From: Candidatus Adlerbacteria bacterium
Lineage (GTDB): Bacteria; Patescibacteriota; Minisyncoccia; Phycocordibacterales; SBAW01
DNA: 64,000 nt
Assembly (NCBI GenBank): GCA_963749085.1
Contig: CAVVLG010000002.1
Location: 370,085-434,084 of the forward strand
Direction: 5' to 3'
Shown here: one piece after another, positions 12,945-35,478 of the stretch
Layout of the letters: each line of letters starts with the position of its first letter
Numbering within the stretch: the stretch's first letter is position 1
Position numbers and translations under genes: made by a program
Notes under the pieces: generated by a model
The model's database searches: none
Seen by the model: the letters and a program-made list of their open reading frames with translations, nothing else
What the model was told of the DNA's origin: nothing

Positions 12945-15194
12945 TTAAGGCTTGAGCGTCCCGGCGTTTATTTGGCTGACGAAAGATTGTATTTGGGTGG
13001 CGAGGCTTGGGTTGGCGGCGGCTGCCTGATTGAGCTGCGTTATGGCCTGCTGTTTGTTGCCGTTGACGAAATAGGTGGTAATAGCCTGTCCGACCATCGC
13101 CTGCACGTTGGTTGGATCCGTCTGAAGCTCCTGTCCATAAATGGCAGAGAGGCGGGAGTACTGCTTGGTATCGAAGTATGCCTGCATAATTGTCTGATTA
13201 TTCACATCCACTGTGCCGAAGCTCTGCATCAAAATAGCGTCTCCGGCGCTATCCTCCCCGGCGTAGTAGAGCGCTGCGGCATAGTACGCGGCCGCATCGG
13301 AGTAGCTGGTGTCTTCGTTGTAGGCTTGCTCAAACGGGGGCAACGCATCTTTGACGTCACCTTCCGCAAGGTAGGTCGAGCCTATTTCAAAGAGTATTTG
13401 CTGTTTGTTCGGAGAATCTGCGAGCGACTCCTCTAGATACGTCAGCGCCTGCGGATATTGGTCGAATTGATCAAGGAATACGCCGTAGAAAAGCTCCAAT
13501 CGTGCGTCATGCGGGCGCTGCGTTAGAAGCGCGTTGCCCGCCTGCTCCGTGAGTGTGAAAGCCTGTTGTTTGAGATCCGGGCTCACCGACGTGGAAGCCG
13601 CGATGTTGTTTGAGGAGAACTGGAAGAGCTGCTCGACGGTTTCCTGGTACCCGAGGTACGGCCCGTAGGAAAGCGCCTGTTGAAATGCGGCGAGATTGAC
13701 GCTTGGGTCCACTGCCGCTCCCGTGTTGGGATCCTGGGTCGAGAGTGCGGTGATAAGGGTCTGGGCGCGTGCGATACCGGGACCGTTGAGATACCACCCT
13801 CCCCACACTAAGAGCACAAGCAGAATGGGGGCAGCAACAGCGACAGCTTTATCACCCAAGGGTTTCGACATGAACATCCAGCCAGGTGGCCGTTTGTAAG
13901 AGAGTCCGTGTATGAACGCCAGAATCAGATAGAAGTACAGATAACTTCCCAGGTTATCGAACACCGTCATGTTATTGGCGGCGTATGCCGCCAAAAGGCC
14001 TATGAGTATCGCCTGCTCGACGATATCAAGATCGCTTTTCCATACGATCCACACTGCAAACGCAAACGTGGCAACATAGAGAAGAAGCGCGGGCAACCCG
14101 CCGTCTATAGTCCAGTCGATGAATTGGTTGTGTGCGCGGTCAAACCACTGCTCCTGGGCGTACATCGCCGGATTGTAGTATTTATTGAAGACAAAATTGA
14201 AATTCTCCTGACCCCACCCGAGAAGTACGGTCTTGGGACTCTGTTTGAAGCCATCCCACGCCTCGCCCCAGATAATGAGTCGTGCCTGCGCCGTGTCGTC
14301 AGTGAGCGACAAAGAAGCGTAGCGCTGGAGGGTCGGAGAGTTTTGTACGAATGAAGTGTTGCGTACCCCGATAAATATCAGCAGGATGACGACGATGACT
14401 CCGATGCCGCCGAGCGCCCAGTTGCGTATGGTCTTTGCGTGCGATCCTTTGCCCAGGAATGCTATGTATAGGCCTGCAATGATGAGACCGCCGATAACTC
14501 CGAGAAGGGCACCTCTCGTCTCAGTGAACATAAGTGTCGAAAACTGAAGCACGAGCGCGATGCCGTAGAGCCACCAGGCCGTTTTTGATTTGCGCTCATC
14601 ATAGAGGAGATAGAGCGTAATGAATATCTGAAACAGCATGTATACCGCAAGGTAAATGGCGTTGCCGAAGGTCGTGTCGGCACGCGGACCGCTCTGGGAG
14701 CTCGGTTGCAATCCGAAAATATGAAATACCTGCATAAGCCCGTAGATGCCCATGATATAGCTTGCGGCCACCGAAACCTGGAAGAGCTTCTTCCACCAAT
14801 TTTCGGCAGTGAGTACTGCCCCGGCGATAAGAAAGAGAGCATACATGTGAATGAGCGTGATGTAGCCGTCCATGCGCTCGAAGTTGCTCCAAAAACTTTT
14901 GACCGGGTCAACGCTGAAAATAGTGGCGACCGCCATCCACAGCACGAAGAGGCTGAGTGTCCACATCAGAAGCGAGGAGCGCGGACGATACTTCGGCTCA
15001 CGAATAGCCAGGAGCACGTAGAGCGCGAACATGATTTCTATCAGGATGCGCAGCGCGAAATTCTTGCCCGTGATGTAGGGGAAGAACATATTGATACCAA
15101 GAGAATGAATCCCATCGGCCACGATAAAGACAGTAAAGAGGGTGAGGCACAGTCCGGTAATAAGTGCCCATCGAAGCCACTTCGTATATTCCAT
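12945..15194 (-). CDS. O-antigen-ligase-like (Wzy_C-type) polytopic membrane protein with C-terminal TPR-repeat domain
   Basis: 749 aa; ~12 predicted TM helices in N-terminal 450 aa, C-terminal TPR-like repeats (LATQIQSF..., AAYYAAALYYAGED...). Confidence 0.55.
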   Translation of the reverse strand: MEYTKWLRWALITGLCLTLFTVFIVADGIHSLGINMFFPYITGKNFALRILIEIMFALYVLLAIREPKYRPRSSLLMWTLSLFVLWMAVATIFSVDPVKSFWSNFERMDGYITLIHMYALFLIAGAVLTAENWWKKLFQVSVAASYIMGIYGLMQVFHIFGLQPSSQSGPRADTTFGNAIYLAVYMLFQIFITLYLLYDERKSKTAWWLYGIALVLQFSTLMFTETRGALLGVIGGLIIAGLYIAFLGKGSHAKTIRNWALGGIGVIVVILLIFIGVRNTSFVQNSPTLQRYASLSLTDDTAQARLIIWGEAWDGFKQSPKTVLLGWGQENFNFVFNKYYNPAMYAQEQWFDRAHNQFIDWTIDGGLPALLLYVATFAFAVWIVWKSDLDIVEQAILIGLLAAYAANNMTVFDNLGSYLYFYLILAFIHGLSYKRPPGWMFMSKPLGDKAVAVAAPILLVLLVWGGWYLNGPGIARAQTLITALSTQDPNTGAAVDPSVNLAAFQQALSYGPYLGYQETVEQLFQFSSNNIAASTSVSPDLKQQAFTLTEQAGNALLTQRPHDARLELFYGVFLDQFDQYPQALTYLEESLADSPNKQQILFEIGSTYLAEGDVKDALPPFEQAYNEDTSYSDAAAYYAAALYYAGEDSAGDAILMQSFGTVDVNNQTIMQAYFDTKQYSRLSAIYGQELQTDPTNVQAMVGQAITTYFVNGNKQQAITQLNQAAAANPSLATQIQSFVSQINAGTLKP

Positions 15195-15203
15195 ATAAAA
15201 AGA

Positions 15204-16265
15204 CTATACCACAGAGCCTGATTTTTTCGCGCGTGCTGGAAGGTCGGATAACTTCGCCGCAATGGCGGCAAAAATGGTCTCATCCGAAAGGTCATAGACG
15301 CAGCGGCGGTATGGTTTACCGTCTTCAAACACCTCGCACCGCTTCCCCGGCTGGCCGCACACGCAATTTTTTTTCTCCCATATAAGGAGCGCATTCGGAT
15401 TGTAGCTCGGCAGCCACATTGGCTCCTTCTGCTGGGCGAGGATGATACTGGGTGCTTGGAGTACTCCCGCAATATGCGTAGGACCGGTATCAATGCCGAT
15501 ATAGAGCTTCGCGTGCTCAATGAGGCCGGCGACTTGTCGCAGCGGAAGATTGATGGCAAGGAAGATTTCGGGCTTATTCGCCGCTATCTTTTGCGCTTCT
15601 ACCCGGTCAGCTTCCGCTCCGGTGATAACTAAACCGCACGAAGGATAGCGTTGCCGCAACTCCTGCGCGAGATTTCTCCAGCGCCGCAGAGGCAGTGTTT
15701 TGCGTGTGGACATATGAGGGAAGGGATGCACGACGATGTAGAGTTGTCCCGCGAATGGAAATTCAGGAGGCAGTTCAGAAAGAAACTTCATGCACGGTGG
15801 AGAACCAATGGGCTCAGTCGGCACCGACGCGAGGAGTAGCGCGCGGCGGAGATTATCGATGTAGCGCAGGGAGCGGTCGTGCTCAATGAGGCGGTAGGGA
15901 TGCCACAGGGACTCGTCCTTAAAGCCCACCACTATATCGCCACGCAACCGCAATAGGGCAGCTAGCAGTTTTATGACCAACGGACGGTTTCCCCACGCCG
16001 GCGGGGCTATGACTACTGATTGATGCTTGAGGAGCGGCAGAGCCGCCCTGAGAGCTCCCACGAGCGAATACGGGACGGGAATGACGATAATGTTTGGATA
16101 CGCCGCCGTAAGATCGGCGATAAAGGGTGCATTACGTCGCACCAAATACTGTATGTGCATATCCGGCGTACGGCGAAGAACTTCGGAGAAAAGCGAGACG
16201 ATCATGACGGCGTCCCCGATATGTCCTCCGGTGGGAAGCCAGATGAGATGTTTCTTAGTTCTCAT
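15204..16265 (-). CDS. Glycosyltransferase family 9 (heptosyltransferase-like)
   Basis: ORF 15204..16382; GT9 signature LYIGIDTGPTHIAGVLQAPSIIL; probable start MRTKKHLIWLPTGGHIGDAVM at 16265. Confidence 0.75.
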   Translation of the reverse strand: MRTKKHLIWLPTGGHIGDAVMIVSLFSEVLRRTPDMHIQYLVRRNAPFIADLTAAYPNIIVIPVPYSLVGALRAALPLLKHQSVVIAPPAWGNRPLVIKLLAALLRLRGDIVVGFKDESLWHPYRLIEHDRSLRYIDNLRRALLLASVPTEPIGSPPCMKFLSELPPEFPFAGQLYIVVHPFPHMSTRKTLPLRRWRNLAQELRQRYPSCGLVITGAEADRVEAQKIAANKPEIFLAINLPLRQVAGLIEHAKLYIGIDTGPTHIAGVLQAPSIILAQQKEPMWLPSYNPNALLIWEKKNCVCGQPGKRCEVFEDGKPYRRCVYDLSDETIFAAIAAKLSDLPARAKKSGSVV

Positions 16266-16286: not shown

Positions 16287-17567
16287 ATGGACTATATGGG
16301 AGAGCGACTGAAAAAAGCCGTGGTGCGTGTCTTGCGCTGGAGTGAGCACTACACCAAAACCGACATGGTGTACCTGGCCCAAGTGGGAGTTTGGACAAAC
16401 CTGAACGTCATTATTTCCTCGGTGCTGGCGCTGGTACTCGCTATTATATTCGCCAATCTTCTGCCTAAAGATGTCTATGGCACCTATCAGTATCTACTGT
16501 CACTTTCCGCACTTCTCGCCGCTATATGTCTTGGCGGCATGCAGCAGGCAGTAGCACAATCAGTAGCACGGGGAAACGAAGGCGACATGCGTGCATCGTT
16601 GCGTGCTCAATTGATATGGGGTCTCGTACCAGCAGGCGTCGGGCTTCTCGGAGCACTGTACTATGCATTGCACAGCAACGAAGTAGTTGCCGTAGGCCTT
16701 GCCGTCATTGCGCTGCTCACGCCTCTTGTCAGCGCCTTTAGCATATACGGCGCGTTCCTAGGTGGCACTCGTCAGTTCAAACGCTTTTTTATATATGGAC
16801 TGATCGCAAACATTGCGTACTATGCAGCCATTTCCATTGCAGTGGTATTTTTTAAAAACGCTGCCGTACTCGTTTTTATCAATCTTGCTGCCAATGCGGT
16901 CGTGAACATCTATCTATACGTCCGAACCCTCAGAGTGTGCAAGCCCAGTGACCGCACCGATCCTCACACCGTGTCCTATGGCGCGCATTTAAGCGTCATG
17001 AACGCTTTCGGAACGGTCATCTCGCAACTCGATTCTGTACTTGTATACCATTTTCTAGGGCCGGTACAGCTTGCGGTATACAGCTTTGCCACCCTTATTC
17101 CAGAGCGCGCCGGCGGCCTGTTCGGATTTATCGGCACAGGGGCTTTACCAAAATTTTCCCAGCGCACGCTCAGGGAAATACAACAATCTATCGTGTGGCA
17201 GACTATTCGTGCGGCACTTCTCGGCGCCGTGGCCTCGCTTGCTTATGTTATTTTGGCGCCGCTTCTTTTTCATCTGCTTTTTCCTAAGTACTTGGACGCC
17301 CTCTCCTACACGCAGTGGTATGCGCCGGTCATATTGCTCATGGCAGCAAATCTGGTGTCGTCAGCCCTCGTGGCGCAGCGCCTAAAAACAGAGCTTTATA
17401 TTACCAGTTTCGTCAATCCTATATTGCTGATTACGCTCCAAGTACCGCTGCTTTTGCTGTATGGCATCTGGGGTATGCTTGTGGCACGAATGGTCACTGA
17501 TTTCGTCGGTATCCTATTAGGATTGTTTCTGTTCTTTAGAAAAGGTGAGGCGAACGGAAGCGCGTAA
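16287..17567 (+). CDS. Polysaccharide flippase (Wzx/MOP superfamily)
   Basis: 426 aa, ~12 TM helices, polysaccharide-biosynthesis-protein architecture; divergent from GT9 gene. Confidence 0.7.
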   Translation: MDYMGERLKKAVVRVLRWSEHYTKTDMVYLAQVGVWTNLNVIISSVLALVLAIIFANLLPKDVYGTYQYLLSLSALLAAICLGGMQQAVAQSVARGNEGDMRASLRAQLIWGLVPAGVGLLGALYYALHSNEVVAVGLAVIALLTPLVSAFSIYGAFLGGTRQFKRFFIYGLIANIAYYAAISIAVVFFKNAAVLVFINLAANAVVNIYLYVRTLRVCKPSDRTDPHTVSYGAHLSVMNAFGTVISQLDSVLVYHFLGPVQLAVYSFATLIPERAGGLFGFIGTGALPKFSQRTLREIQQSIVWQTIRAALLGAVASLAYVILAPLLFHLLFPKYLDALSYTQWYAPVILLMAANLVSSALVAQRLKTELYITSFVNPILLITLQVPLLLLYGIWGMLVARMVTDFVGILLGLFLFFRKGEANGSA

Positions 17568-18398
17568 ATATTCGAGGGCAAAATAACTTGCAAGGAGGGG
17601 ATCGAACGCGCGTAGCGCTATTTTAAAGGAATGAAGGGCCCGGTCGCGTGCGACGCGCGGATGCGCGGCAAAAAACGCCGCATGATCGCGAAAGATGCGC
17701 CGATGGGCCCGCGCGAATGAGGCCGGGTTACGTCGCGCCGCCGTATCGCTTAAATGCTCGCCACTGTGTGACCAATCGATCAAGATAATTTGTCCCGGCA
17801 GGTACCGTATGCCGACGTTATCGCGCCCGACTTTGAGCCACCATTCGCCCTCGAAACCGTTAACATCTTCCTCAAAGAGGTATGCCGGGAAGAGCGTCCA
17901 TTTGAAGACTGGCCGGCCCTCGCTTCCCTTGTGCATGCGCAGGCCCTCGCCGGTCATCAAGGCCTTGTACGAAGGCTCATACCATTTCTCCCCTTCGGCA
18001 AAATTATATCCACCAACAAATTCTCCTTCAGCTGTGCGTATGAGAGTATTAAAACTTAAAATTTGTATATTGGGAGGCGTCTCGGCTATCCCCCGCGCCA
18101 CTATTTCAAGCGCACCCGGCAGAAGCAGATCATCGTCATCAAGCGGCACGACCCACTCTCCTTCACGCAAGGTTCTGAACGCCGCGTTGCGCGCGGCATT
18201 GACGCCGCGGCTTTTGTCGTTATGCACAATCGTAAGGCGCGGATGATTGAGCGATTGAAGATGTTCTCGCGTGCCATCAGTAGAACCATCGTTGATGACC
18301 ACAACGCGATAATTCTCATAGGTCTGGGCAAAAACGCTCTCAAGTGCGCGTTGGAGGAGTACACGACGGTCTTTAGTTGGGATGACGATGACGAGCAT
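17517..18398 (-). CDS. Glycosyltransferase family 2
   Basis: 293 aa; MLVIVIPTKDRRVLLQRALESVFAQTYENYRVVVINDGSTDGT GT2 N-terminus with DxD. Confidence 0.8.
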   Translation of the reverse strand: MLVIVIPTKDRRVLLQRALESVFAQTYENYRVVVINDGSTDGTREHLQSLNHPRLTIVHNDKSRGVNAARNAAFRTLREGEWVVPLDDDDLLLPGALEIVARGIAETPPNIQILSFNTLIRTAEGEFVGGYNFAEGEKWYEPSYKALMTGEGLRMHKGSEGRPVFKWTLFPAYLFEEDVNGFEGEWWLKVGRDNVGIRYLPGQIILIDWSHSGEHLSDTAARRNPASFARAHRRIFRDHAAFFAAHPRVARDRALHSFKIALRAFDPLLASYFALEYLRASVRLTFSKEQKQS

Positions 18399-18431
18399 TG
18401 ACCGTACTATACCAGCATTGCGGGTGTTTTT

Positions 18432-19374
18432 TTAAACCAACAAAATATCAGTGAAGCCTCCTTTTTTCTCAAGTGTTTGATACAAGCGATCGAGTGCGGA
18501 ATCGGACATCTTCACAGGAGTGGGTTCTTTCTCTGATAAGTCATAGTACTGGCTATAGACTGAAATAGCCGTCCGCAAAGCGGAATAGGAGTTCGCTCTC
18601 TCCATACCATACGGCCAAAATTCAATGACCATGGGCACTTTCAATGCGAGAGCATTTCGTGCCCCTTGCAAAATGATGCCTTCGTACCCTTGCGTATCCA
18701 TCCAAATCAAATGTGAGTTCCTTCCTATATCTGGAATGACGGAGTCAAGTGACTCAGAGTTTACGATGACGGTTTGTCTTTGTCCTTCAGAACCGGTTCC
18801 CTTTTCGACACTCACTTTAATCCTATGATCGCCACTGTTATTCGGCGACAACTCGAGCGTAAGCGTCTGTTTTCTATCCCCCAACGCAAGATTGAGGGGG
18901 GTGATTTTATCAGCCAGATCGTTTAAATAAATGTTAGAGACAAGCGCGCGATAATTTCGAGGCTCAGGTTCGATAGCAATAGCGTTCACGATGCATATCC
19001 TCGCTTAACTGCGGCCACGCAAATAGTTCCGATATTGGCGCCGATGTCGATCAATGTATCGGGTTAAACGCTCTACCCTCTAGTAAGGATAGTGCTTTCT
19101 CGAATTTCGAGAATTCGTCGTTACCATACACAAATAGGGGCTTTGAAAGGGCTTTGTCCGAGGTGATGACTACAAAGCTCTCGAATCCTCGATCGGCGAG
19201 CAAAAATTCATGGCTTCTGCTTGCACTGTCGAAGCGCGCACGTCGAAACAATGAATAGTCAAATTTATTCGCAAGAGAGAACACTGCGGACAACAAAGTA
19301 TCGGTGATCGTGTAAAAGTAAATTCCGAATCTTGCCCGGATGGTAGCAATCCTGCCTTTGGTAATACTTAACAC
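18432..19374 (-). pseudogene. FkbM-family methyltransferase disrupted by two closely spaced frameshifts
   Basis: Three consecutive frames on minus strand encode N-part (19374..19051, ends ...EGRAFNPIH*), the signature segment DTLIDIGANIGTICVAAVKRGYAS* (19063..18989, +1 frame) and the C-part NAIAIEPEPRNYRAL...(18989..18432, GTG start in track). Confidence 0.55.
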
Positions 19375-19418
19375 GTGCTGTATTATACCTTAACTACCTA
19401 CAGTCGCCGATATTTTAC

Positions 19419-20210
19419 ATGACCCTTTCTTATATAATTGTCACCCGCAATAAGTTGTCGTACCTCAAGGTGTCTCTTCCGAAATTGATCGCTCACAAGA
19501 AAGAAGGGGAGGAGATCGTTGTGGTTGATGGCAATAGTACTGACGGTACTGTTGAATATTTAAGGGAACTTTTCAAACGTGGTGATGTCAATCAGTTTGT
19601 TTCTGGACTGGACAAGAGTTTAGGCCATGCAATCAACAAAGGGATCCTTATGGCGAAGGGAGAATTGATCAAGACCATGAGCGATGATGATATTTATTAT
19701 TATGATGAGATGCAGAAAGTCAAAGAATTCCTGCTTGCGCATCCGGACATAGATGCTCTCGGTACGAATGGGAAACAACACGACGGGAAAGAGTATCATC
19801 GGGAAGAGGACTTTCTTCTATGGAAAAATACTCCGTATCATCCTTTTATGATTTACGAACAGGGACTGTGGCTGAGAAGAAGTTCTCTGGCGATTTTCGG
19901 CCTCGCCGACACCTCGTTTACTTACTTTTGGGATGCGGAATTTACCATACGTCTTACGGCAGGAAGGGCGCGTATCGCTTGGTATACGGGAAAAACGTTC
20001 GAACATATTCTAAATCCTAGCAGCGTCGGCGGAGGGAATCCTGATTTATGGAAAGTCGAATCCGCACGGGTGCGACAAATGTATCCGAATCTATACAGTC
20101 GCTGGAGGCATCTGGTCCCGAAGCCTATACGGACTGGTATCAGGTATCTGTTTCCCAAAAAACATCTGGCGACTGCCGAGCAGTCAAATACTCCGACATT
20201 CTTATTTTAA
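19419..20210 (+). CDS. Glycosyltransferase family 2
   Basis: 263 aa; IIVTRNKLSYLKVSLPKL...VVVDGNSTDGT, ...DDD. Confidence 0.75.
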   Translation: MTLSYIIVTRNKLSYLKVSLPKLIAHKKEGEEIVVVDGNSTDGTVEYLRELFKRGDVNQFVSGLDKSLGHAINKGILMAKGELIKTMSDDDIYYYDEMQKVKEFLLAHPDIDALGTNGKQHDGKEYHREEDFLLWKNTPYHPFMIYEQGLWLRRSSLAIFGLADTSFTYFWDAEFTIRLTAGRARIAWYTGKTFEHILNPSSVGGGNPDLWKVESARVRQMYPNLYSRWRHLVPKPIRTGIRYLFPKKHLATAEQSNTPTFLF

Positions 20211-20603
20211 CGGACCTTCAACAGAGAAAGATCTTTTGTCGTCAATGTAGGGACCGTTTTTGATTTCGATAACTTCCGAATCTTCCAAAAATTCTACTGC
20301 ATGAGGACCAGAGAGTATGACACACGTCTCGCCCTGGGCGATGTCAGCTTGTGTGGATGTTTTTTCATCCTCGTCAAAAAAGAAGACTCGAAGCTTGCCC
20401 CGAATCACAACAAGGCACTCTTGCAGGACGGTAGTCTCCCGCCGATGCGGTGTATGTGTGTGGGGAGCGACGAGTCGGCCTTTCGCATACTTAAGCGTCA
20501 GGACCTGAAGTGCTCCATCGGACTCAGTCACCGGCACAGAGCCATCCGCTATCGAGCTAATTTTTAGCGCGACGAGTCTTCCTTTGTGAACTATTTTTTC
20601 CAT
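20202..20603 (-). CDS. Cupin-fold sugar isomerase/epimerase-like protein (WxcM/FdtA-like)
   Basis: ORF 20202..20681; HxH...E cupin motif ([26 protein letters not shown]); likely start MEKIVHKG at ~20603. Confidence 0.45.
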
Positions 20604-21696
20604 TGATGTGACCGTAGCCCATACTCTTGCGCTGATTGACGATCGTGCTATGCAGGATCGCCTCGCGTTTAGCATATTCAAGATCCTCTTTCGTCATGAG
20701 CGCGGCAAGCTGTTTGAACGTGACGTTTGGTTTCCAATTCAGAACGCGGCGCGCCTTTGACGAATCCCCGAGCAATGTATCGACTTCATTGGGTCGGAAA
20801 TATCGCGGATCGACCTCCACGACCGTCTTCCCAGTTTTGTTGTCGATACCCCGCTCCTTCATGCCTTTTCCTTTCCATTCAAGCGACATATCAAGGTTGC
20901 GCGCAACTTCCTCGACAAATTCGCGCACCGTGTGATTTTCACCGGTTGCGATGAGAAAATCATCTGGCTCATTGTGCTGCAGGATGCGCCACATCGCCTC
21001 CACGTAATCCTTGGAGAATCCCCAGTCGCGCTTCGCCTCAAGGTTGCCGAGGCGAATGAGCGGCTGGAGCCCGAGCTTTACTTGAGCGAGGCCAAGCGTG
21101 ATCTTGCGCGTGACGAAATTGATACCGCGGCGCGGCGATTCGTGATTGAACAAAATGCCGTTTGAAGCGAAGAGTCCGTATCCGGTCCGGTATTGCTTCG
21201 TGACATTGAACGCAAACACTTTTGACGCGCCGTAGGGCGATTGAGGATTGAAAGGGGTTGTTTCTTTTTGTGGCATTTCGAGGACTCTGCCGAACATTTC
21301 AGACGAGCTTGCTTGATAGAAGCGGATTGGAAAGTCGACGTTGCGGATTATTTCAAGGAGTCGCAGAGGCCCGAGCGCGTCGATGTTAGCGGTGTACTCG
21401 GCTTTGTCGAAGCTCACGCCGACGTGGCTCTGCGCACCGAGATTGTAGATCTCATGCGGCTTTACTTTGTTGATGATGCGGAAGAGATTGGAACTATCGG
21501 AGAGATCTCCATAGAGCATCACAAAATTGGGCTTTTCTGTATCGTCGTAGAGATGATCTATTCGCGCGGTATTGGGAAGGCTCGCACGGCGCTGGAGTCC
21601 AAACACGTGATATCCTTTTTGGAGTAGGAGTTCACAGAGATACGAACCATCTTGGCCCGTGGCGCCTGTTATAAAGGCCCTCTTTTTTTCTGGCAT
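20557..21696 (-). CDS. gmd: GDP-mannose 4,6-dehydratase
   Basis: 379 aa; [31 protein letters not shown], full-length SDR-extended with Gmd hallmarks. Confidence 0.9.
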
Positions 21697-27353: not shown

Positions 27354-27374
27354 GTTGTTTGGATGATATTGAGG

Positions 27375-28349
27375 TTACACGGATTGTGCCCTTGCCGTAG
27401 CCATGTTTGACATTTCTGGGGCCTTCCAATCAGGATGGCGGGCTAAATAGCCCTTAAGCTCCCCAATCGCCAATGCGACAGAGCCTTGGGGCGCAAATCC
27501 GGATGCTCCAATAAACTTTGAAAAATCAACGGAGTAGGATCGCGGGTCGTCGAAGCTTTTGCGCTCCTCATAGACTGCATCCGGAATTGCAGTTTTAACC
27601 ATATGACCAATCTCGCTCACCTTATAGTTTTCACCACTTCCCACATTGAATGTTTGGTTACCCACTACTGTAGTGGGTAGTTCTATGCAGCGTCGGACTG
27701 CATCGGCGACATCGCCGACATAGATGAACGGCCTCCAATTTTCACCCGCGATAATGGTTATTTTATTATCCACATAAGCGGTGGCAGTAATAGTGTTAAC
27801 CATTAGATCGAAACGTGGTCTGTGCGATAATCCATATACTGTCGCGAGACGTAAAATAGTCGGCTTAAAATGCTCCCCGGCGAGACTTTTTAGAAACTTC
27901 TCGACCTCAACCTTATATCGCCCATAGTCAGAAACGGGATTGAGCGCCGCCGTTTCCTTTAGCATGCTTTCCGATGAAAAACCGTAAACGCTGCATGAGG
28001 ACGTGTATATAAACTTTTCTATAGTGAGCTTTCGCGCGATAAGGGCAGCTGAGCAAGGTGCGAGATAATTTATCTCAAAAGCGAGATCCGGCCGCGCCGC
28101 ACATACCGGGTCGCCTACCAACTCTGCAAGGTATACGACCGTTTGGCATCCCTGCATTGCCTGATGGAGAACCGACACATCGCGGGTGTCCCCCACGATA
28201 AATTCAAGATTTGATGATTGTGGAACGGAGTCGCGATTCTTATAAATACATTGATCGAGAACTCGAACATCCTCGCCATCTTGCAAGAGCTTGGCCACTA
28301 ACATGGAGCCAATGTATCCCGCACCACCAACCACAAGAATCTTATTCAT
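27375..28349 (-). CDS. NAD-dependent sugar epimerase/dehydratase (SDR extended family)
   Basis: ORF 27375..28463; MNKILVVGGAGYIGSMLVAKLL (start ~28349), YxxxK region YGRYKVEVEKFL. Confidence 0.85.
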   Translation of the reverse strand: MNKILVVGGAGYIGSMLVAKLLQDGEDVRVLDQCIYKNRDSVPQSSNLEFIVGDTRDVSVLHQAMQGCQTVVYLAELVGDPVCAARPDLAFEINYLAPCSAALIARKLTIEKFIYTSSCSVYGFSSESMLKETAALNPVSDYGRYKVEVEKFLKSLAGEHFKPTILRLATVYGLSHRPRFDLMVNTITATAYVDNKITIIAGENWRPFIYVGDVADAVRRCIELPTTVVGNQTFNVGSGENYKVSEIGHMVKTAIPDAVYEERKSFDDPRSYSVDFSKFIGASGFAPQGSVALAIGELKGYLARHPDWKAPEMSNMATARAQSV

Positions 28350-28386
28350 CGGTATTTCAGTATAATAGAGCAGATGCGGAAGCAAA

Positions 28387-29172
28387 TCAAAGGGTTGAGA
28401 GAGGGCTTTCAAGAAGCGCGCTCGGTAAAATAAATTGCGCCCCGAGCCTGCGGGCCTGCTCAATGAGCTTACGCAGGCGCGCTTTCTTTTCGTCGGTATA
28501 AAAATGCAAATGCGTCACCACAACGAACACGCCGTTTTTGTCGTGCGCGTACTGCAAACCGTCAAACACATCCTCATCTTCAAGACGATATGAGCACACT
28601 TCTTTATGCTTGCCAAAATCAAGCACATACGGATAGGCAAAAGGGTTAAATAATTTAAACCAGAGCATCCGCACAAAAATCACCGCATACTGCCACCGCC
28701 ACAACCAATTACGCAGGCCGGCGCCACGCCCGCGGATGATGATGCCGAGGCCCGCCGTCTCAACGGCCTTGATGCCGTCACTCCCCACCCAGTCATGCGG
28801 CGGCACAAAGACGCGCGGCGCGTTGCCAAAGGCGCGCGTGAGCTCCTCCTTCCCGCGCAGCGCCTCGCCGTGCGGCAGCGCGCGTGCATACTCAAATGCG
28901 CCATCTTTCGTTTGGTGTGTCGTGCCGTGCTGTAAAATTTCAATAAGCGGGTTACCCTTCACATAAGCGATAAGCGCCGGATTACCGGTTATGGGGTACT
29001 CTTTGTCTTCTTTCTGCGCGGCTGCCACATACACATCACTGCTGCCGCGTACGAACGGTATGGTTGAAAAGCCGATAGGGATGTTTTGTGCAAATAGATC
29101 GCTATACCATCGCTCGATATCGGCGGGCTGTGAAAAATAATTTAAATCGTCATCACGGATGATAAAAAACAT
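28387..29172 (-). CDS. Polysaccharide-deacetylase-like / DUF2334-like protein
   Basis: 261 aa; MFFIIRDDDLNYFSQPADIERW...; assignment by weak recollection only. Confidence 0.35.
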   Translation of the reverse strand: MFFIIRDDDLNYFSQPADIERWYSDLFAQNIPIGFSTIPFVRGSSDVYVAAAQKEDKEYPITGNPALIAYVKGNPLIEILQHGTTHQTKDGAFEYARALPHGEALRGKEELTRAFGNAPRVFVPPHDWVGSDGIKAVETAGLGIIIRGRGAGLRNWLWRWQYAVIFVRMLWFKLFNPFAYPYVLDFGKHKEVCSYRLEDEDVFDGLQYAHDKNGVFVVVTHLHFYTDEKKARLRKLIEQARRLGAQFILPSALLESPLSTL

Positions 29173-29175
29173 ATA

Positions 29176-30279
29176 TTAACTATTTACACACTCGATTAAC
29201 AGTTTTGCATATTGAGCCACACTTGAGCTTATATCATAGCGTTGCGCAGTCTCTGTAGCATGTGCACGGAGTGCGTGAGAATCGGCTTGGACGAGTTTCT
29301 CTAAAGCCCCTTCAACCGCTTCAGCGCTCCGGTTTGGGATAAAAAAGCCATTCGCGCCGTCTTTGATATATTCATCAGGACCTGCAGTTTTAGTGGTCAC
29401 GACTGGTAACCCGGCTGCCATCGCCTCAATGCACACAAGGGAGAATCCTTCAATGTCGGAGGTAAGTACGAATGCATCACTCGCTTTATAAAATTTTACG
29501 ATATCACGACGTGTGCCAAAAAACGTGACGGAGTTGTTGAGGTCAAGGGCGTTAGTGCGCGTTTCAAGTTTCGGACGCAGCCAGCCCTCGCCCACTATCG
29601 CCAGCTTATACGTGGGAAATTTTTTGTGGAAAAGCGCAAAACCGTCGAGCAAGAGCTTTTGATTTTTTTGAGGCGACAGGCGTCCCACAGTAAGTACTGG
29701 CTTGTTTGCCGGCTTAAACCCAAGTTCGCTCTTGAGTTCTTCTTTTGCAGGCAAGGCCGCGGAGTGTTGTGTAATTTTTGTATGTCAACGCCATTGTGAA
29801 TGACGACGACTTTGCTTTGGGATTCCTCCTGTGCGGCGGTAGATTCGGCTACCGTTTTTGAAACTGCAACAATGCGATACGAGACACGCGCTAACCAACG
29901 ATCAACAATAAGCTGTGTCCGTGTTTTATTAACATAGGTATTATGCTCGCACGGTATTACAGCGTAGCCAGAGAAGGAGTTTAGTGTGCTAATTACGGTA
30001 TTGCTGAAATGTGAGGTTAGAGACGACTATATCCGGCTTAAGGGCTTGGAGCGCCCGGTACAGTCTCCACCATGAGCGGATGTCATGCAGACTTTTAAAA
30101 TCAAAATGGAGCGTGCGTACAGACGAAGGAACTTCTGCTAAGAAGTTTTCTTCTGGGTTCTGTCGCAGGGTTATGAGGTAACAGCCAAAGCGTGTTTGAT
30201 CGATGCGCTGATCTTCTACCGTGAGACGTTCCGCCCCACCGATGCCGAGATCGTTGATCCCAAAAACCACTTTTATCTT
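29176..30279 (-). pseudogene. Glycosyltransferase family 4 gene interrupted by two frameshifts (near 29990 and near 29758); N-terminal segment is in frame with the upstream GT4
   Basis: Frame a: KIKVVFGINDLGIGGAERL...KPDIVVSNLTFQQYRN*; frame b (29988..29760): STLNSFSGYAVIPCEHNTYVNKTRTQLIVDRWLARVSYRIVAVSKTVAESTAAQEESQSKVVVIHNGVDIQKLHNTP; frame c (29754..29176): AKEELKSELGFKPANKPVLTVGRLSPQKNQ...LTSDIEGFSLVCIEAMAAGLPVVTT; concatenation gives a contiguous, full GT4 domain. Confidence 0.6.
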
Positions 30280-31299
30280 TCTTCGTGCGCCAAAAATCTC
30301 CGCGAGTTTTTCCGCCAAAAGCTTAAGTGAATGCTCGCGCTCCACGTACGCTCGACATGATTCCGAGAGTTCGGCGCGCTCTTTGACATTCATCGCGATT
30401 GCCGCTTGGAGGCCGCGTGCCACGGCTGCCGACTCTAGAGAAACTATAAATTCAGAAGGTAGAACGTCCAGCAATCCGCTATTGGCACACACTATTGTGC
30501 ACCCACTCGCCATTGCTTCAAATATTGTCTTGTCAAAGCTCCCCGAAGGGGTGAGGTTGACATAAATTGCATGAGCCCGATACAGATCGGGAGTTTCCAC
30601 ATTCGGCACCCCGGGAAGAAAAGAGGCACCCGAAAACCCCCGATAGCGATATGCAAGGGCTTCAGCATACTCCTCATTGCCGGGCGTTGGATCCCCATAG
30701 ATGTGCGCTTCATAGTTGACGCCGCGGCTTGAAAGTTGCTCGAGCGCCGCACAAAAGAGATCGGGTCTCTTTATCTCATCGAGCCTACCCAAAAAAAGCA
30801 GCGAGCCCGGCGTTGCTGGTGACTGGGGCGGCACAAAAAGTCGCGTATCAATACCCGCCGGCATCTTGACCCCATGGGTGAAACGGGCCGTGTAGGATTC
30901 CGGCGACACGTAACAGAGCGAGTTCGCGAGGCGGCAGGCAAGCGGCGTCATCCACGAGCCCGTCTTGAAATTGCGCCAGAGGACAATTTTTTTTCCGCAC
31001 AGCCGCCACCACCATCCGCCGAGCATGACGTACTCTTCGTTCATATGCACGAATACGGCATTGTAGCGCAGCGACCATATGTAGCGAAAGAAATAAAAAA
31101 CGTATTTAGATCGCGAGCGACCCCGTTCCTTGCCGAGCGAATATACCCGAACGTTTGCAGGCAATGTGTGCCTTCCCTCTTTGAGACAGACCACCGATAT
31201 CTCTGCAAACTGCGGGGCGAATGCTTCAAGCCATCCGTGGAAAAATCCGAGCACCGGATCGTCCACGTCGACCGCCTGTGTAAAGATAAGGAGATTCAT
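30280..31299 (-). CDS. Glycosyltransferase family 4 (CPR-type MNLLIFTQAVDVDDPVLGFFHGWLEAF N-terminus)
   Basis: ORF 29989..31419; probable start MNLLIF at 31299 (ATGA overlap with upstream gene stop); GT4 C-terminal motif FDKTIFEAMASGCTIVCAN; reads through without stop into next GT4. Confidence 0.7.
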
Positions 31300-32144
31300 A
31301 TTTCCTTGCCATAGACGCCACGAAGTAAACCGAGGTCTTTTTTGCTTTGCTTGAGCAATTCGATATTCTTCCGCTCCAGAGCCGCGAGCACCTCTTTGCC
31401 ACGAGCATCGCCCGGACACAGGGTGTCATAAAGTTCGCGAAATGCGGCAAAATCCTTAATGAAGCACCCGCCGCCTGCGCCTCGCCCGCTCTTGTGCACC
31501 GGTTTGCCGTAACGATTGGCCACGTACGGATCGTGATCCAGCGCCCCGCGCACCTGCTCCCAGTCAGCTCCGAGAGCCGCGGCGGCATCATAGAGTACGT
31601 TGGCGAGCAGGATCTGAACATAACCGTTGAGATTGTGCGAATATTTGATAAGTTCAGCTTCGGTGCTCGTGCATACCTGCACAAACGGCGCCTTGGGCAA
31701 TACCTCGCTTACTGTATTCGCGGCCACCCGGTGTATTGCGTCAGAGACGGGGAGTCCGAATATATTGGAGAAAGGATGCGCCGCATCGTGGGCGGCGCTC
31801 GCTTCACTGAGGAACTCGGGGGAGTACAGCAACACAATATTCGGATGTTCCTTCTGAAGTCGTTCAGTCGTACCCGGCAGCATAGTCGACTTCAAGACCG
31901 CAATTTTGCTTCTGCCGATTAATGACAAGACACTCTCCACGATGCCCACATCAAAGCCTCGTAGCGTTGTTGGAGTCGGTACTGCGATGAAGACGATGTC
32001 GCACTCCTTTATTTTTTTCTTATTCGCCACATAAGGCTGCTCGAGCGCGTACCGCACGACTGAAAAACCGCGCCGCTCAAAATCGTCGGCGTAGTTCTTG
32101 CCTATCCAACCCTGTCCGATGAAACCTATACGTTGCATAATCAT
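31296..32144 (-). CDS. Nucleotide-sugar dehydrogenase-like protein (UDP-glucose/GDP-mannose dehydrogenase family), short form lacking C-terminal UDP-binding domain
   Basis: ORF 31296..32264; Rossmann MQRIGFIGQGWIGKNYA, catalytic-Cys motif GGGCFIKD (cf. GGSCFPKD); likely start MIMQRIGF at 32144 (ATGA overlap). Confidence 0.5.
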   Translation of the reverse strand: MIMQRIGFIGQGWIGKNYADDFERRGFSVVRYALEQPYVANKKKIKECDIVFIAVPTPTTLRGFDVGIVESVLSLIGRSKIAVLKSTMLPGTTERLQKEHPNIVLLYSPEFLSEASAAHDAAHPFSNIFGLPVSDAIHRVAANTVSEVLPKAPFVQVCTSTEAELIKYSHNLNGYVQILLANVLYDAAAALGADWEQVRGALDHDPYVANRYGKPVHKSGRGAGGGCFIKDFAAFRELYDTLCPGDARGKEVLAALERKNIELLKQSKKDLGLLRGVYGKEI

Positions 32145-33226
32145 AATAGTGTATTTTGCCCAATGCGCGCGGTATATAATTCTTGTATGTGCTCCATGTA
32201 TTCTCCCTCGTTTACGTAAGACTGCAGCTTCAGAATCCCGGGTTGGCGTGGTCCTTTGAGCCACAAGATAAGCGCTTCTGCATATTTATCTTGATCATCG
32301 CTTGCAATGAACGCGCCCGCCTCCCGCGCTATGCCAACATCGGTGGAAAGCACCGGCACTCGTGCGGCAAGCGCTTCGATGATGACCATGCCGTATCCTT
32401 CGAAAATCGAGGTGACGAGCAAAAGATCCGCCTGAGTATAATAAGGGACAGGATTGGACACGGCGCCCGTAAACTCAACCCATTCCCCAACCCCCTCGCA
32501 ACTGGCCTTCTCCTTGAGTGCTTTGAGAAGGTGCCCTCCGCCAACAAACGTGAGTCCGACCGCATATCCTTCCCGCCGCGCGGCGATGAACGCACCAAGC
32601 GCAAGCTCGGGATTCTTCTCCTTTTCCATGCGTCCCACCCACAGAAGCGAAGTTGTAAATCGCGGATGCTTCCTGTGGGTGATAACGCTAAAGCGCTGCG
32701 TATCAACGTAGATGGGCAGAACGCCAAGCGGCACGGTCAGGCGATAACGTTTCAACACTTTCTCTCTAAGAATATTCGACACAGTATAGCCGCCTTGTGC
32801 GTGGCGCAGCACGAATCCCGCGATAAGCACACGCAGCCGGTTGAGGAGCGAGTGTCGGACGAAAGATGGCGAAAGGAAATCGGTATGCATTTCAATCATG
32901 AGCGGTACCCGCCAGTAGCGGGCAATGAGAAGCGCCACGAGACCCGTCTCGAATGGATCTTGCGCCGAAACTGCGTCGGGGCGCGGCAGATGCCGCACGA
33001 TGCGAAGAGCATCCAAACCGTAGAGAAGTCTTGAGCGGGAATTGGTCGGATAGGCATGGACGCCTGGCGCAAGCTCCTGCGCTCCCGTGGCGCCATATGC
33101 GCGCACCGCAAAGACTATGGAATCAAGCCCTTCGGTATACCCCTGACCAAAGCGCGCGATGCGTGCGCGCACGGCGCTCCCAGGCGTAAAGATAGTCCGG
33201 TCAGTGCCGATAAGCATCAGGCGCAT
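32141..33226 (-). CDS. Glycosyltransferase family 4
   Basis: ORF 32141..33319; MRLMLIGTD...; LLLVTSIFEGYGMVIIEALAARVPVLSTDVG. Confidence 0.8.
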   Translation of the reverse strand: MRLMLIGTDRTIFTPGSAVRARIARFGQGYTEGLDSIVFAVRAYGATGAQELAPGVHAYPTNSRSRLLYGLDALRIVRHLPRPDAVSAQDPFETGLVALLIARYWRVPLMIEMHTDFLSPSFVRHSLLNRLRVLIAGFVLRHAQGGYTVSNILREKVLKRYRLTVPLGVLPIYVDTQRFSVITHRKHPRFTTSLLWVGRMEKEKNPELALGAFIAARREGYAVGLTFVGGGHLLKALKEKASCEGVGEWVEFTGAVSNPVPYYTQADLLLVTSIFEGYGMVIIEALAARVPVLSTDVGIAREAGAFIASDDQDKYAEALILWLKGPRQPGILKLQSYVNEGEYMEHIQELYTARIGQNTLL

Positions 33227-34302
33227 ACTTGTTTGAGGACATCCGCAAAAGCAGACATCGCTACAGCGGTTGAAAATTGTTCTGCCTTGCGTTGTGCAGC
33301 CTGGACTCGCCCGTGCCATAGCTCCGGATCGCTCTGTATGCTTGCTATCGCTTCCCTAAAAGCAGCCTTGTCGTCGGGCGCGCATAATACTCCCTCGACT
33401 CTATTGGTGATAAGTTCCGGGACACTTCCCGCCGTCGTGGCTAGCACGGGCACTCCCGCCATCATGGCCTCAACTATTTGAAATGAGAAACTTTCAAAAG
33501 AGGTGTTGAGCACAAATGCGTCGGCAGCCTTACACCATCCCAGTACCTGTGGGCGCGAAAGAGATCCGGTGAAAAGAACTTTGTTTTGAAGCCCTAATTC
33601 CCGCGCGCGTCGCTCCAGAAATTGCCTCAGCGGCCCATTGCCGATTATGACCAGGCGCCACTCGGGCAACGAAGGGAGGAGTTCGATGAGCATACCGAAG
33701 CCTTTCCAAGGTACGAGCCTTCCGCTAGACACCATGACGTTTCCCTCCGGAATATTCTTTGGTAATTCAATGGAAATTGGCATCTGAATTCCGAGGTAAA
33801 CACAACGTATTCGGGTAGAATCTATACCCCAGTGGCTAGCCACGCTCTCAAAATAATGGCTGGGGACCAACACAAAAGCTGCTGAATGAACAACGAAGCG
33901 CTGCACGCGGCGCAATACTTCGACCTGCCAGGCATAGGTTCGGACTTGGAAATCATCAAGGGAGTCTAAGACACCAAAACGTTGCTTCCCTTGCTCCCAT
34001 GCGTAATCTCCCGGTACCCGAACGATGAGCGGCGTACCACTCAATCTGGCGGCAAACGCAGCGGGCAAACCAACTGATACTGTATCCATGGCGACAATAA
34101 CATCGCAGTGAAATGCATGCACAAAGAGGAGAGAAAAATAACCGAGATGACGAATACCGGGTGGAAAACGACGAACCCTCCTGAAGGGAACAACCTCAAC
34201 CGAGATCCCGAGGGTGGGCAATATCTCCTTCATGCACTCCGCATCCGTTGCTGGGCCGCCGCTCTCCGGAGGATAGAGCCCGGCTGCTATCAGAATCTTC
34301 AT
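33217..34302 (-). CDS. Glycosyltransferase family 4
   Basis: 361 aa; MKILIAAGLYPPESGGPA...; VLNTSFESFSFQIVEAMMAGVPVLAT. Confidence 0.8.
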   Translation of the reverse strand: MKILIAAGLYPPESGGPATDAECMKEILPTLGISVEVVPFRRVRRFPPGIRHLGYFSLLFVHAFHCDVIVAMDTVSVGLPAAFAARLSGTPLIVRVPGDYAWEQGKQRFGVLDSLDDFQVRTYAWQVEVLRRVQRFVVHSAAFVLVPSHYFESVASHWGIDSTRIRCVYLGIQMPISIELPKNIPEGNVMVSSGRLVPWKGFGMLIELLPSLPEWRLVIIGNGPLRQFLERRARELGLQNKVLFTGSLSRPQVLGWCKAADAFVLNTSFESFSFQIVEAMMAGVPVLATTAGSVPELITNRVEGVLCAPDDKAAFREAIASIQSDPELWHGRVQAAQRKAEQFSTAVAMSAFADVLKQVCA

Positions 34303-34311
34303 GGTTGTATT

Positions 34312-35478
34312 TTAGCTTGTTTGGAGGACCGCGCCGAACACTGCGCGGCGCATATTGTGAGCGATAATATTCCAGTCGTATTTTTCAAGCACGAGCCTCC
34401 GGGCATGTTCTATAACCTTTTTTGTCGCTTCGGGGTTTCGGACGATTTCCTCGACTGTCTCGGCAATCTGTGCGGGAGAGTTCTTGTCGACTGCAAAACC
34501 GGTCGGCTCCTTGCCGGAGTTTCTCTTGGCGTCAAAAAGGAAATCAACGATACCTCCCTCCTGAGTGCCTATGACCGGCACGCCGGCAGCCATCGCCTCG
34601 ACGAAGGCATTACCCATACCCTCCGAGCGGCTCGGTCGCACAAAAATATTCGAAATGGCGAGGTACGCAGGCATCTCTTCGTGAGATAGGTGCCCTAAAA
34701 ATTGCACGCGCTGTGCGACTGCACACTCCTTAGCAAGCCTCTTCAATTTCCCTTCTTCAAAACCTACTCCAAGGATGAGAAAATGAACACTCGCCGGCAA
34801 CAAGGGAAGCGCTTGTATCACATCGTCAATGGCGTTCTTGGGTACCAGCCTTGAGGTGGTTATGAGCACTGTCTCGTCTTCGTGAATCTTCAGCCTTTTG
34901 CGAATTGAAGACGAAGCGTCACCGGAAGGCGTAAAAAAACGTTGTATATCAACGCCGTTTGGGATTATCTCAAGCGGCCCTGTAAATCCCTGCTCGCGGG
35001 CCCACCCTCCTAAATACGTTGATATCGCCTGTATGACACTTGCATGTCGAAATCCGGAATGCAGGAGAGGAGAAAACAACCTGATATGCCAGCGTTCAAA
35101 TACGTGTTCGAAGGGATCGCCTTCCTGAAGAGTGAGAATATATGGCACGCGTACCCCTAGGCCTCTCAGCAATACGATAGGCAGCGTCATGTACGACATC
35201 ATTGCCCACAGCGCATCAAAGCGGCGCGCATCGAGCTTGAGCGCCATGCGCACCGCACGGGGAATAAACAATATTTTCGATAGGTAGGAAACGCGGCCGC
35301 CGACGCGATGGACTAGAATATTTCCTATCCTCTCTTCCCGCGGCTCGGAGGGAGAGAACCGCATTGTTATCATATGGAATTCGATATCCGCAATGCGGTC
35401 GGTGATCTCTTTTATGGCAACCTCCGCTCCCCCCACGTGCGGATAATACGCGAGGGAAAAAATAAGTATGCGCTTCAT
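34312..35478 (-). CDS. Glycosyltransferase family 4
   Basis: 388 aa; MKRILIFSLAYYPHVGGAEVAIKEI; IFVRPSRSEGMGNAFVEAMAAGVPVIGT. Confidence 0.8.
   Translation of the reverse strand: MKRILIFSLAYYPHVGGAEVAIKEITDRIADIEFHMITMRFSPSEPREERIGNILVHRVGGRVSYLSKILFIPRAVRMALKLDARRFDALWAMMSYMTLPIVLLRGLGVRVPYILTLQEGDPFEHVFERWHIRLFSPLLHSGFRHASVIQAISTYLGGWAREQGFTGPLEIIPNGVDIQRFFTPSGDASSSIRKRLKIHEDETVLITTSRLVPKNAIDDVIQALPLLPASVHFLILGVGFEEGKLKRLAKECAVAQRVQFLGHLSHEEMPAYLAISNIFVRPSRSEGMGNAFVEAMAAGVPVIGTQEGGIVDFLFDAKRNSGKEPTGFAVDKNSPAQIAETVEEIVRNPEATKKVIEHARRLVLEKYDWNIIAHNMRRAVFGAVLQTS

Follow-up and report, generated by a model that had tools for sequence, protein, structure and literature searches.

Which sugar would be made by a 22.5-kb cluster of glycosyltransferase, methyltransferase and nucleotide-sugar genes in a Candidatus Adlerbacteria bacterium? 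The cluster runs contiguously from position 12945 to 35478, with intergenic gaps of at most 109 nt, in a 64,000-nucleotide stretch of contig CAVVLG010000002.1 (hereafter, the window). A preliminary description of this DNA had predicted a methylated, 6-deoxyhexose-containing and possibly C-branched glycan. We can say with high confidence that the cluster is a glycan biosynthesis locus. The predicted glycan stands as well, C-branching now being probable, and the prediction is strengthened by a four-gene cassette that is conserved in genomes of the candidate phyla radiation (CPR). On the whole, the locus is an ordinary surface-glycan cluster containing a modestly novel, conserved and lineage-typical nucleotide-sugar module.

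Open reading frames (ORFs) were listed on both strands. Candidates between 8.9 and 40.5 kb were compared with Pfam, and those between 12.9 and 31.4 kb were also compared with NCBIfam. Almost every gene named in the preliminary description was supported by these scans. In particular, Gmd, a C-methyltransferase and FkbM methyltransferases, the three assignments on which its prediction had been made to depend, were all upheld.

The four cassette genes are encoded on the minus strand. The first (22526-23737, 403 aa) encodes an NDP-hexose C-methyltransferase of the TylCIII/TcaB9/MtmC type (C-MT), with the three expected domains: PF08421 (5.5e-22, 78 bits), the class-I S-adenosylmethionine (SAM) domain PF13489 (54 bits) and PF08484 (1.6e-45, 155 bits). 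Its best matches in the PDB were MtmC (4rv9, 1.9e-84) and TcaB9 (3ndi, 3.5e-68), followed by KijD1. The four cysteines of the Zn site (residues 3, 6, 46 and 49) are invariant in 12 homologues, as are Y67, H171, Y212, E214 and H215, which match identical residues of TcaB9 (3ndi_A). This conserved set matches Tyr76, His181, Tyr222, Glu224 and His225 of the TcaB9 active site. The second gene (21730-22521, 263 aa) encodes an aldo/keto reductase (AKR; PF00248, 3.8e-60, 203.9 bits), a member of the superfamily with the catalytic tetrad D45/Y50/K75/H108 in the expected motifs. The third (20557-21696, 379 aa) encodes the GDP-mannose 4,6-dehydratase Gmd, which scored 504.5 bits with the TIGR01472 equivalog model, for a cut-off of 415, and matched PF16363 over residues 8-334 (3e-137). 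Finally, the fourth gene (20202-20603, 133 aa), the first 47 nt of which are shared with the 3' end of gmd, encodes a cupin of the WbuC family (DUF6016). It exceeded the TIGR04366 WbuC cut-off marginally (43.5 bits for a cut-off of 42), and all 32 of its homologues match this model; PF19480 (DUF6016) is a precomputed annotation of the cupin homologues. The AlphaFold2 model of the protein is an all-beta cupin (pLDDT 87), and both histidines of the His-x-His motif, H48 and H50, are invariant.

Do these four genes belong together? To survey their neighborhood, C-MT was aligned to one genome per GTDB species, giving 80 loci (loci and contigs are designated by L numbers), and all window proteins were compared with the collected loci by tblastn. 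The nearest C-MT homologues, 55-77% identical, came from Parcubacteria, Taylorbacteria, Niyogibacteria and one Woesearchaeota. The order C-MT, AKR, Gmd, cupin, on one strand, was found in at least eight other Parcubacteria-group loci (L003, L004/L005, L006/L007 from the complete Niyogibacteria genome CP066691.1, L008, L010, L011, L019 and L090). The identities of C-MT, AKR, Gmd and cupin fall in parallel, from 77, 78, 89 and 66% in L003 to 54, 55, 68 and 38% in L010, as a co-inherited functional unit would show. C-MT, AKR and Gmd are also present in this order in L009, the contig of which breaks off within the cassette, and in L016, for which the search gave no cupin. In L090, a NUDIX gene (3365-3895) is inserted between AKR and Gmd, and a GT4 gene follows the cupin; the NUDIX gene recalls the GDP-mannose mannosyl hydrolase found beside gmd in colanic-acid clusters. 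The cupin always comes directly 3' of Gmd, in its distant homologues too and also in L092, where C-MT and AKR are absent. Judging from gene order and divergence, C-MT, AKR, Gmd and cupin thus form a conserved, co-evolving cassette in CPR genomes.

AKR lies 3' of C-MT in 10 CPR loci and in three DPANN loci. Three other loci (L014, L015 and L018) have a C-MT at least 50% identical and none of the cassette partners. Among the approximately 65 loci with a C-MT at most 48% identical, mostly from Proteobacteria, Acidobacteria, Verrucomicrobia and archaea, none had an adjacent AKR, and a relative of the cupin was found nearby only in L073 (33%, a weak match, at the second C-MT locus of a Patescibacteria contig). 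In this distant group, Gmd is located directly upstream of C-MT in L085; in L044 and L073 it is encoded on the other strand, within 3-4 kb. The L085 locus (4738-7203), from an Azonexus metagenome-assembled genome (MAG), pairs a 56% identical Gmd with a 43% identical C-MT, with neither AKR nor cupin. GDP-linked C-methylation may also occur in Betaproteobacteria, with other downstream enzymes.

Taken together with the domain assignments, this conservation leads us to consider it probable that the cassette makes a GDP-linked 6-deoxy-C-methyl-hexose. Gmd, as expected from its family membership, would convert GDP-mannose to GDP-4-keto-6-deoxy-D-mannose. C-MT would then use SAM to methylate the carbon beside the 4-keto group, most likely C3; because of its fixed adjacency to Gmd, in a cell-envelope glycan locus, it probably takes a GDP-sugar. 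The WbuC-type cupin would epimerize or isomerize the 4-keto intermediate, a role suggested by its fixed place after Gmd and by a resemblance to the cupin epimerase domain of CapF, which is at the level of the fold only and was kept as a lead. The AKR, which has a fixed place after C-MT, would use NAD(P)H to reduce the 4-keto group.

The position of the methyl group was considered separately. NovU, CouU and CloU belong to the same PF08421/PF08484 family, and C5 could be exposed if a cupin epimerase acted ahead of the methyltransferase, in the manner of NovW and NovU. The pathway would otherwise be as proposed, and would lead to a GDP-sugar of the 5-C-methyl kind (gem-dimethyl, noviose-like). 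We find this improbable: every solved relative of C-MT that was found (MtmC, TcaB9 and KijD1) is a 3-C-methyltransferase, every residue matched to the active site of TcaB9 is kept, and C-MT comes first in the gene order, not after the cupin. C3 is retained as the most likely site of methylation in the proposed route.

Several observations weigh against this route to a GDP-linked C-methyl sugar. The cassette enzymes and their close homologues are known from sequence alone, and two genes of the locus are frameshifted in this assembly. The nearest solved relatives of AKR are general reductases of the 2,5-diketogluconate type (best PDB matches 6kik/5dan, 8e-62). A profile of the cupin found no match at E≤10 among PDB sequences, CapF included, and the top Foldseek matches of its model in the PDB were generic cupins such as cysteine dioxygenase. 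In the literature, WbuC appears only as a hitch-hiker next to blaCTX-M and mcr-9, with no function. No manC gene (GDP-mannose pyrophosphorylase) was detected among approximately 55 scanned window ORFs, comprising nearly all those of at least 100 aa between 1 and 54 kb together with one located past this limit; the same scan revealed neither an initiating phosphoglycosyltransferase (Bac_transf, Glycos_transf_4) nor a Wzz chain-length regulator. The initiating transferase and the chain-length regulator may be encoded elsewhere on the 518-kb contig. Moreover, the characterized relatives of C-MT all use dTDP-sugars, not GDP-sugars (PMC3539893), and in three archaeal loci (L012, L013 and L017, from Woesearchaeota and Methanosarcinales-labelled MAGs) C-MT is followed by AKR (51-53% and 42-46% identity) and Gmd is absent up to a distance of 6 kb.

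The last two points raise the question of whether the cassette is one pathway or two. Gmd and cupin could by themselves yield a GDP-6-deoxyhexose of an ordinary kind (rhamnose, talose or fucose type), with C-MT and AKR acting independently on a dTDP-, CDP- or UDP-4-keto sugar made elsewhere. Each half is indeed found without the other, Gmd being followed by cupin in L092 with neither C-MT nor AKR, and in the window a TATAGA box resembling a promoter separates AKR from gmd. Nevertheless, the two pairs are adjacent, co-oriented and in fixed order in 10 bacterial loci, and their divergence is parallel. No 4,6-dehydratase other than Gmd was assigned in the locus: the one candidate, an SDR (short-chain dehydrogenase/reductase) of the extended type at 27375-28349, scored far below the cut-off of every specific NCBIfam model, dehydratases included. 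Finally, Gmd and cupin alone would be left with no dedicated 4-ketoreductase. Two independent pairs are thus an unlikely explanation, and a single GDP-linked pathway is preferred. Because the three DPANN loci have no Gmd nearby, the C-MT/AKR pair itself need not depend on Gmd, to judge from these gene neighborhoods; it seems to be common to CPR bacteria and DPANN archaea.

Other identities were tried for two of the cassette proteins. An AKR12 identity (TylCII/EryBII type) was considered for AKR and dropped, the locus being devoid of a 2,3-dehydratase; TylCII and EryBII are NDP-hexose 3-ketoreductases of 2-deoxygenation pathways. For the cupin, an RmlC-type 3,5-epimerase or FdtA-type 3,4-ketoisomerase identity was rejected for want of sequence or close structural similarity.

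How does the cassette compare with known systems? The closest known analogue is the GDP route proposed for virenose (6-deoxy-3-C-methyl-gulose) of the Coxiella burnetii O-antigen, with Gmd (CBU_0689), a TylCIII-like protein (CBU_0691) and a GMER/Fcl-like protein (CBU_0688) (PMC3539893). GDP-linked C-methylation was proposed for virenose in 2012 and has never been demonstrated (PMC3539893, PMC13252051); a 2026 preprint still describes the route as 'not fully characterized' (PMC13252051). In both cases Gmd and a TylCIII-type C-MT are encoded in a surface-glycan locus, and GDP-4-keto-6-deoxymannose is predicted to be methylated beside the keto group, then epimerized and reduced. In Coxiella, however, a single bifunctional SDR (GMER) would perform the last two reactions, whereas here the AKR is proposed as reductase and the 133-aa WbuC cupin as epimerase. 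The present genes also form a fixed, operon-like cassette of four, in a monoderm-type CPR host with no lipopolysaccharide context, and both routes are predicted only. No Fcl-type enzyme is encoded in the locus, the only other SDR scoring 26 bits for an Fcl cut-off of 500. The cassette is consequently an analogue of the Coxiella pathway and not a member of it as defined.

The methyltransferase itself resembles TylCIII/TylC3, EryBIII, MtmC (4rv9), TcaB9 (3ndi) and KijD1 (5t64) in its succession of PF08421 Zn-ribbon, class-I SAM domain and PF08484. Those antibiotic enzymes take dTDP-4-keto-(2,)6-deoxyhexoses made by RmlB and are encoded in actinomycete secondary-metabolite clusters. The family is common to the dTDP-mycarose, tetronitrose and kijanose pathways, while the dehydratase and the genomic context differ. 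For the cupin, the comparison is with CapF/WbjC of UDP-L-FucNAc synthesis, which has cupin and SDR domains in one protein; here the cupin and the reductase, an AKR, are encoded by two genes, and GDP presumably takes the place of UDP. The cupin has no detectable sequence similarity to CapF, and WbuC, found in L-FucNAc O-antigen clusters, has no assigned function.

A broader proposal can be made: a lineage-typical pathway of the Parcubacteria group to a GDP-linked, C-branched 6-deoxyhexose, in which an AKR replaces the SDR 4-ketoreductase, a WbuC cupin is the epimerase and the C-MT/AKR half is shared with DPANN archaea. We put it forward tentatively, being somewhat inclined to doubt it as a whole. 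If true, it would be the first defined GDP-dependent sugar C-methyltransferase system, would provide a first function for the widespread WbuC family and would give ultra-small episymbiotic cells a chemically distinctive surface sugar. CPR bacteria are attached to other cells, and their surface glycans are likely to be important in contacts with the host and in defence against phages. To our knowledge, no CPR glycan structure has been described. The compact cassette predicts one specific, unusual monosaccharide, and it is small enough for in vitro reconstitution.

The immediate neighbors of the cassette are partly conserved with it. An intact FkbM methyltransferase gene (23832-24752, plus strand, 306 aa) is divergent from the cassette; its product scored 95.4 bits with TIGR01444 for a cut-off of 37.7 (PF05050, 2.2e-15) and is full length, spanning profile positions 1-143. 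On the other side, a convergent gene encodes a family 2 glycosyltransferase, GT2b (19419-20210, plus strand, 263 aa; PF00535, 3.2e-18). The nearest relative, L003, shares this block of FkbM, cassette and GT2b at 60-89% identity and in the same mirror arrangement: two tandem FkbM orthologues (61 and 51%) occupy the same position, and a GT2b orthologue (60%) has the same position and orientation. From this conservation, FkbM and GT2b would probably O-methylate and transfer the cassette sugar.

The limits of the locus, 12945 and 35478, were correctly placed in the preliminary description. On one side it is flanked by murB (11721-12794), and on the other by a TrwB/HerA-like ATPase gene (35494-37260), an rsmI-like methylase gene and murC. 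Gene starts were refined by means of gene calls on contigs 99.9-100% identical to the window (L002 and L089), together with an exact-sequence look-up. The start of the longest ORF was too long for the AKR, SDR, cupin, GT9, Ugd-like and GT4d genes (the last three are described below). All the window proteins tested by look-up were singletons at 90% identity. An ORF at 26589-26981 (plus strand), which has no family match and overlaps a minus-strand methyltransferase gene, was judged spurious.

Export and assembly functions are located at the murB end. The first gene (12945-15194, minus strand, 749 aa) encodes a Wzy_C membrane protein, similar to O-antigen ligases and polymerases, with C-terminal tetratricopeptide repeats (TPR) (PF04932, 6.9e-20; several TPR families); this exact protein is on record. 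A hydropathy scan showed about nine hydrophobic segments between residues 1 and 470; residues 550-730 are occupied by the TPR repeats. It is followed by a heptosyltransferase-like GT9 gene (15204-16265, minus strand, 353 aa; PF01075, 2.9e-15; TIGR02193, 3.6e-15, far under the equivalog cut-off), the start of which was taken from the gene call on L089 (99.95% identical). A MOP-family, Wzx-like flippase is encoded next (16287-17567, plus strand, 426 aa; PF01943, 1.8e-13; PF13440, 2.1e-08), with about ten hydrophobic segments in the hydropathy scan. The family matches and hydrophobic segments of these two membrane proteins are those of a Wzx/Wzy-type flippase and Wzy_C pair. As in Wzx/Wzy assembly and with the Wzy_C oligosaccharyltransferases (WaaL, PglL/PilO, S-layer WsaB), a MOP flippase and a polytopic Wzy_C protein are encoded near many GT2, GT4 and sugar-modifying genes. 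Unlike those systems, the Wzy_C protein here has a C-terminal TPR domain of approximately 200 aa.

The remaining genes encode glycosyltransferases and modifying enzymes. GT2a (17517-18398, minus strand, 293 aa; PF00535, 1.9e-26) has a TGGTATAGT box 7 nt 5' of its ATG. Beyond the cassette and the intact FkbM gene, a small class-I SAM methyltransferase of the Methyltransf_11 family (24757-25305, minus strand, 182 aa; PF08241, 1.3e-12; identical gene call on L002) is followed by GT4a (25415-26584, plus strand, 389 aa; PF00534, 5.8e-26), which has a 56% identical orthologue in L003. A second class-I SAM methyltransferase (26682-27353, minus strand, 223 aa) is probable, with a weak assignment from PF05175 (0.0029) and TIGR02469 (2e-4) only and a VVDIGAGLGG motif I. 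The extended SDR mentioned above (27375-28349, minus strand, 324 aa; PF01370, 1.4e-40) is a nucleotide-sugar epimerase or dehydrogenase, its best PDB match being 6vo6, a 'putative sugar-nucleotide epimerase/dehydratase' (5.3e-37). Next come a DUF2334, polysaccharide-deacetylase-like protein (28387-29172, minus strand, 261 aa; PF10096, 5.1e-06, 26.7 bits for a cut-off of 26), a GT4-GT4 fusion and a short Ugd-like protein, both discussed below, and three more minus-strand GT4 genes: GT4d (32141-33217, 358 aa; PF13692, 8.7e-25; PF00534, 4.4e-24), to which a 57% identical orthologue in L003 aligns from residue 1; GT4e (33217-34302, 361 aa; PF00534, 3.6e-35); and GT4f (34312-35478, 388 aa; PF00534, 3.5e-35; exact protein on record), the first gene of a tight minus-strand run. 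Together, GT2a, GT9, the GT4 modules, the SDR, the Ugd-like and DUF2334 proteins and the other methyltransferases would assemble a lipid-linked oligosaccharide and add its decorations. The glycan would be exported by the MOP flippase, and the Wzy_C-TPR protein would polymerize it or ligate it to an extracytoplasmic acceptor, which may be a wall polymer, a lipid, a pilin or an S-layer protein.

How is the locus transcribed? Both ATGA overlaps reported earlier, at 31296-31299 and 32141-32144, are present, and a further overlap, TGATG, was located at 33217. They had been read as the mark of one translationally coupled operon. This applies to the run from 35478 to 28387, where genes overlap or are separated by gaps of at most 16 nt, and not to the whole locus, which has genes on both strands. 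Extended -10-like boxes (TGnTAnnnT) were found 6-9 nt before the starts at 15194, 18398 and 23832, and before that of the flanking ATPase gene at 37260; plainer -10-like hexamers precede the starts at 19374, 21696 and 28349. Because these boxes lie just 5' of the starts, they suggest that the locus is expressed as several leaderless transcripts.

More generally, in about 10 of the 23 TGnTAnnnT matches, 6-9 nt separate the end of the box from an ATG or GTG start codon, leaving no room for a Shine-Dalgarno sequence. Besides the sites at 15194, 18398, 23832 and 37260, these include sites at 50820-50840, 54480-54513 and 57210-57237. The total count is not above that of shuffled sequence (23 vs 22 ± 6), and only the placement near starts is notable. 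This placement suggests that leaderless mRNAs are widespread in the host. The flanking gene at 35494-37260 (minus strand) encodes a 588-aa P-loop ATPase of the TrwB/TraG/HerA type and is preceded by a TGGTATACT box of its own. Its end is separated by 15 nt from the first GT4 gene, which has the same orientation, and the ATPase gene may be transcribed together with the run of glycosyltransferase genes.

Two genes of the locus are disrupted in this assembly. As stated in the preliminary description, one of the two FkbM genes is a pseudogene here: at 18432-19374 (minus strand), an N-terminal ORF of 107 aa, a DIGANIG motif and the remainder are in three different frames, and the 185-aa C-terminal ORF covers TIGR01444 positions 25-141 only (69.7 bits). 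No independent contig spans the frameshift sites, L089 stopping before them. The other case is the GT4-GT4 fusion (GT4c and GT4b, 29176-31299, minus strand), the second module of which is disrupted. Three-frame translation showed that GT4c has no stop and reads in frame into the N-domain of GT4b, after which the frame changes twice. In the Pfam and NCBIfam matches, accordingly, ORF 29989-31419 finishes with this second N-domain, and a 192-aa ORF at 29176-29754 contains a GT4 C-domain. The latter ORF had been listed as a separate truncated GT4 gene and is in fact the tail of the frameshifted module. The earlier count of six GT4 therefore holds for modules, and these are carried by five genes.

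Are these genes true pseudogenes? An intact, single GT4-GT4 ORF of 709 aa is present in Logan contig L088, from a sample (ERR12036785) in which contigs identical to the window were assembled as well, and in ENA contig L001. Compared with both, the window has seven single-base indels between 29761 and 30007. Both contigs match the window with 100% identity over 28250-29500, and L001 does so over 21250-24500 as well. Over 30250-32000, which contains the first GT4 module and the gene for the Ugd-like protein, their DNA is only 68-78% identical to the window, and both alleles are open; as L088 and L001 end inside this divergent block, only its 28250-29500 flank is covered. The pattern looks like a recombinational allelic replacement of two genes between co-occurring strains, as far as these contigs allow comparison, and suggests diversifying selection on a surface structure. 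Since the indel cluster lies at the edge of the divergent block, it could reflect an error in the consensus of mixed strains and not a true pseudogene.

The alternative is a partly decayed locus, which would make a truncated glycan or none, with FkbM and the GT4 module as true pseudogenes resulting from relaxed selection or phase-variable switching. The two frameshifts in FkbM and the seven indels within 250 nt of GT4b are what such decay would leave, and elsewhere the window is 99.9-100% identical to independent Logan contigs, so that the assembly is generally accurate. Still, the other 19 genes are intact, including all four of the cassette, and the indels cluster exactly where two co-occurring strains start to diverge, a typical site of mixed-strain consensus errors. 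We consider decay very unlikely. A separate region of L001, corresponding to window positions 26250-27500 (3' end of GT4a, weakly assigned methyltransferase, 3' end of the SDR), is 90-95% identical with many indels; L001 is indel-rich overall (86 gap openings), and variation and assembly noise are indistinguishable there.

The Ugd-like gene in the divergent block (31296-32144, minus strand) encodes a short member of the UDP-glucose/GDP-mannose-dehydrogenase family (PF03721, 1.4e-15; PF00984, 5.1e-12). Its product, of 282 aa compared with 390-490 aa for solved members, keeps the Rossmann motif, the NAD-binding and central domains and the GGGCF motif of the catalytic cysteine. No C-terminal nucleotide-binding domain (PF03720) was found in the Pfam scan, so that the protein does not have the three domains of the family, and PDB alignments stop at about residue 333 of the 444-aa Ugd. 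The second allele, on a contig that is cut, encodes a protein 82% identical over 250 residues (DNA about 75%) with the same stop position and short length. The short form is not a truncation artefact.

Local base composition varies along the locus. The GC content is 44-46% over 18000-26600 (FkbM pseudogene, GT2b, C-MT, FkbM, Methyltransf_11 and GT4a), compared with 52-56% in the outer genes, a dip consistent with a mosaic origin.

As for the host, its SecA is 75-81% identical to proteins from Candidatus Paceibacterota, Minisyncoccia, Adlerbacteria, Kaiserbacteria and Parcubacteria, which identifies it, by sequence affinity, as a CPR bacterium of the Parcubacteria group. The preliminary description had called the glycan unusual for a small-genome organism. 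The small genome agrees with the SecA affiliation; 'unusual' does not hold, the closest C-MT homologues and the cassette being typical of Paceibacteria.

Several other features of the window were recorded. A 16S rRNA gene (60020-61485, minus strand, about 1466 nt, 1355 bits) has a tRNA-Ile gene 2 kb away (57951-58024, minus strand), with two ORFs between them. No 23S rRNA gene was found in the 64-kb window, and the rRNA operon is thus unlinked or interrupted. A full-length LOOT RNA (Rfam RF03000; 45520-45646, minus strand) scored 82.8 bits for a gathering threshold of 46.4, and lies just downstream of a hypothetical gene with no family match (44795-45460). Finally, the window contains a MazF/PemK toxin gene (8227-8586, minus strand), an IS4/IS5 transposase fragment of the DUF4096 family (48966-49508, plus strand) and a gene for a holin-family protein with four transmembrane segments (5692-6027, minus strand).

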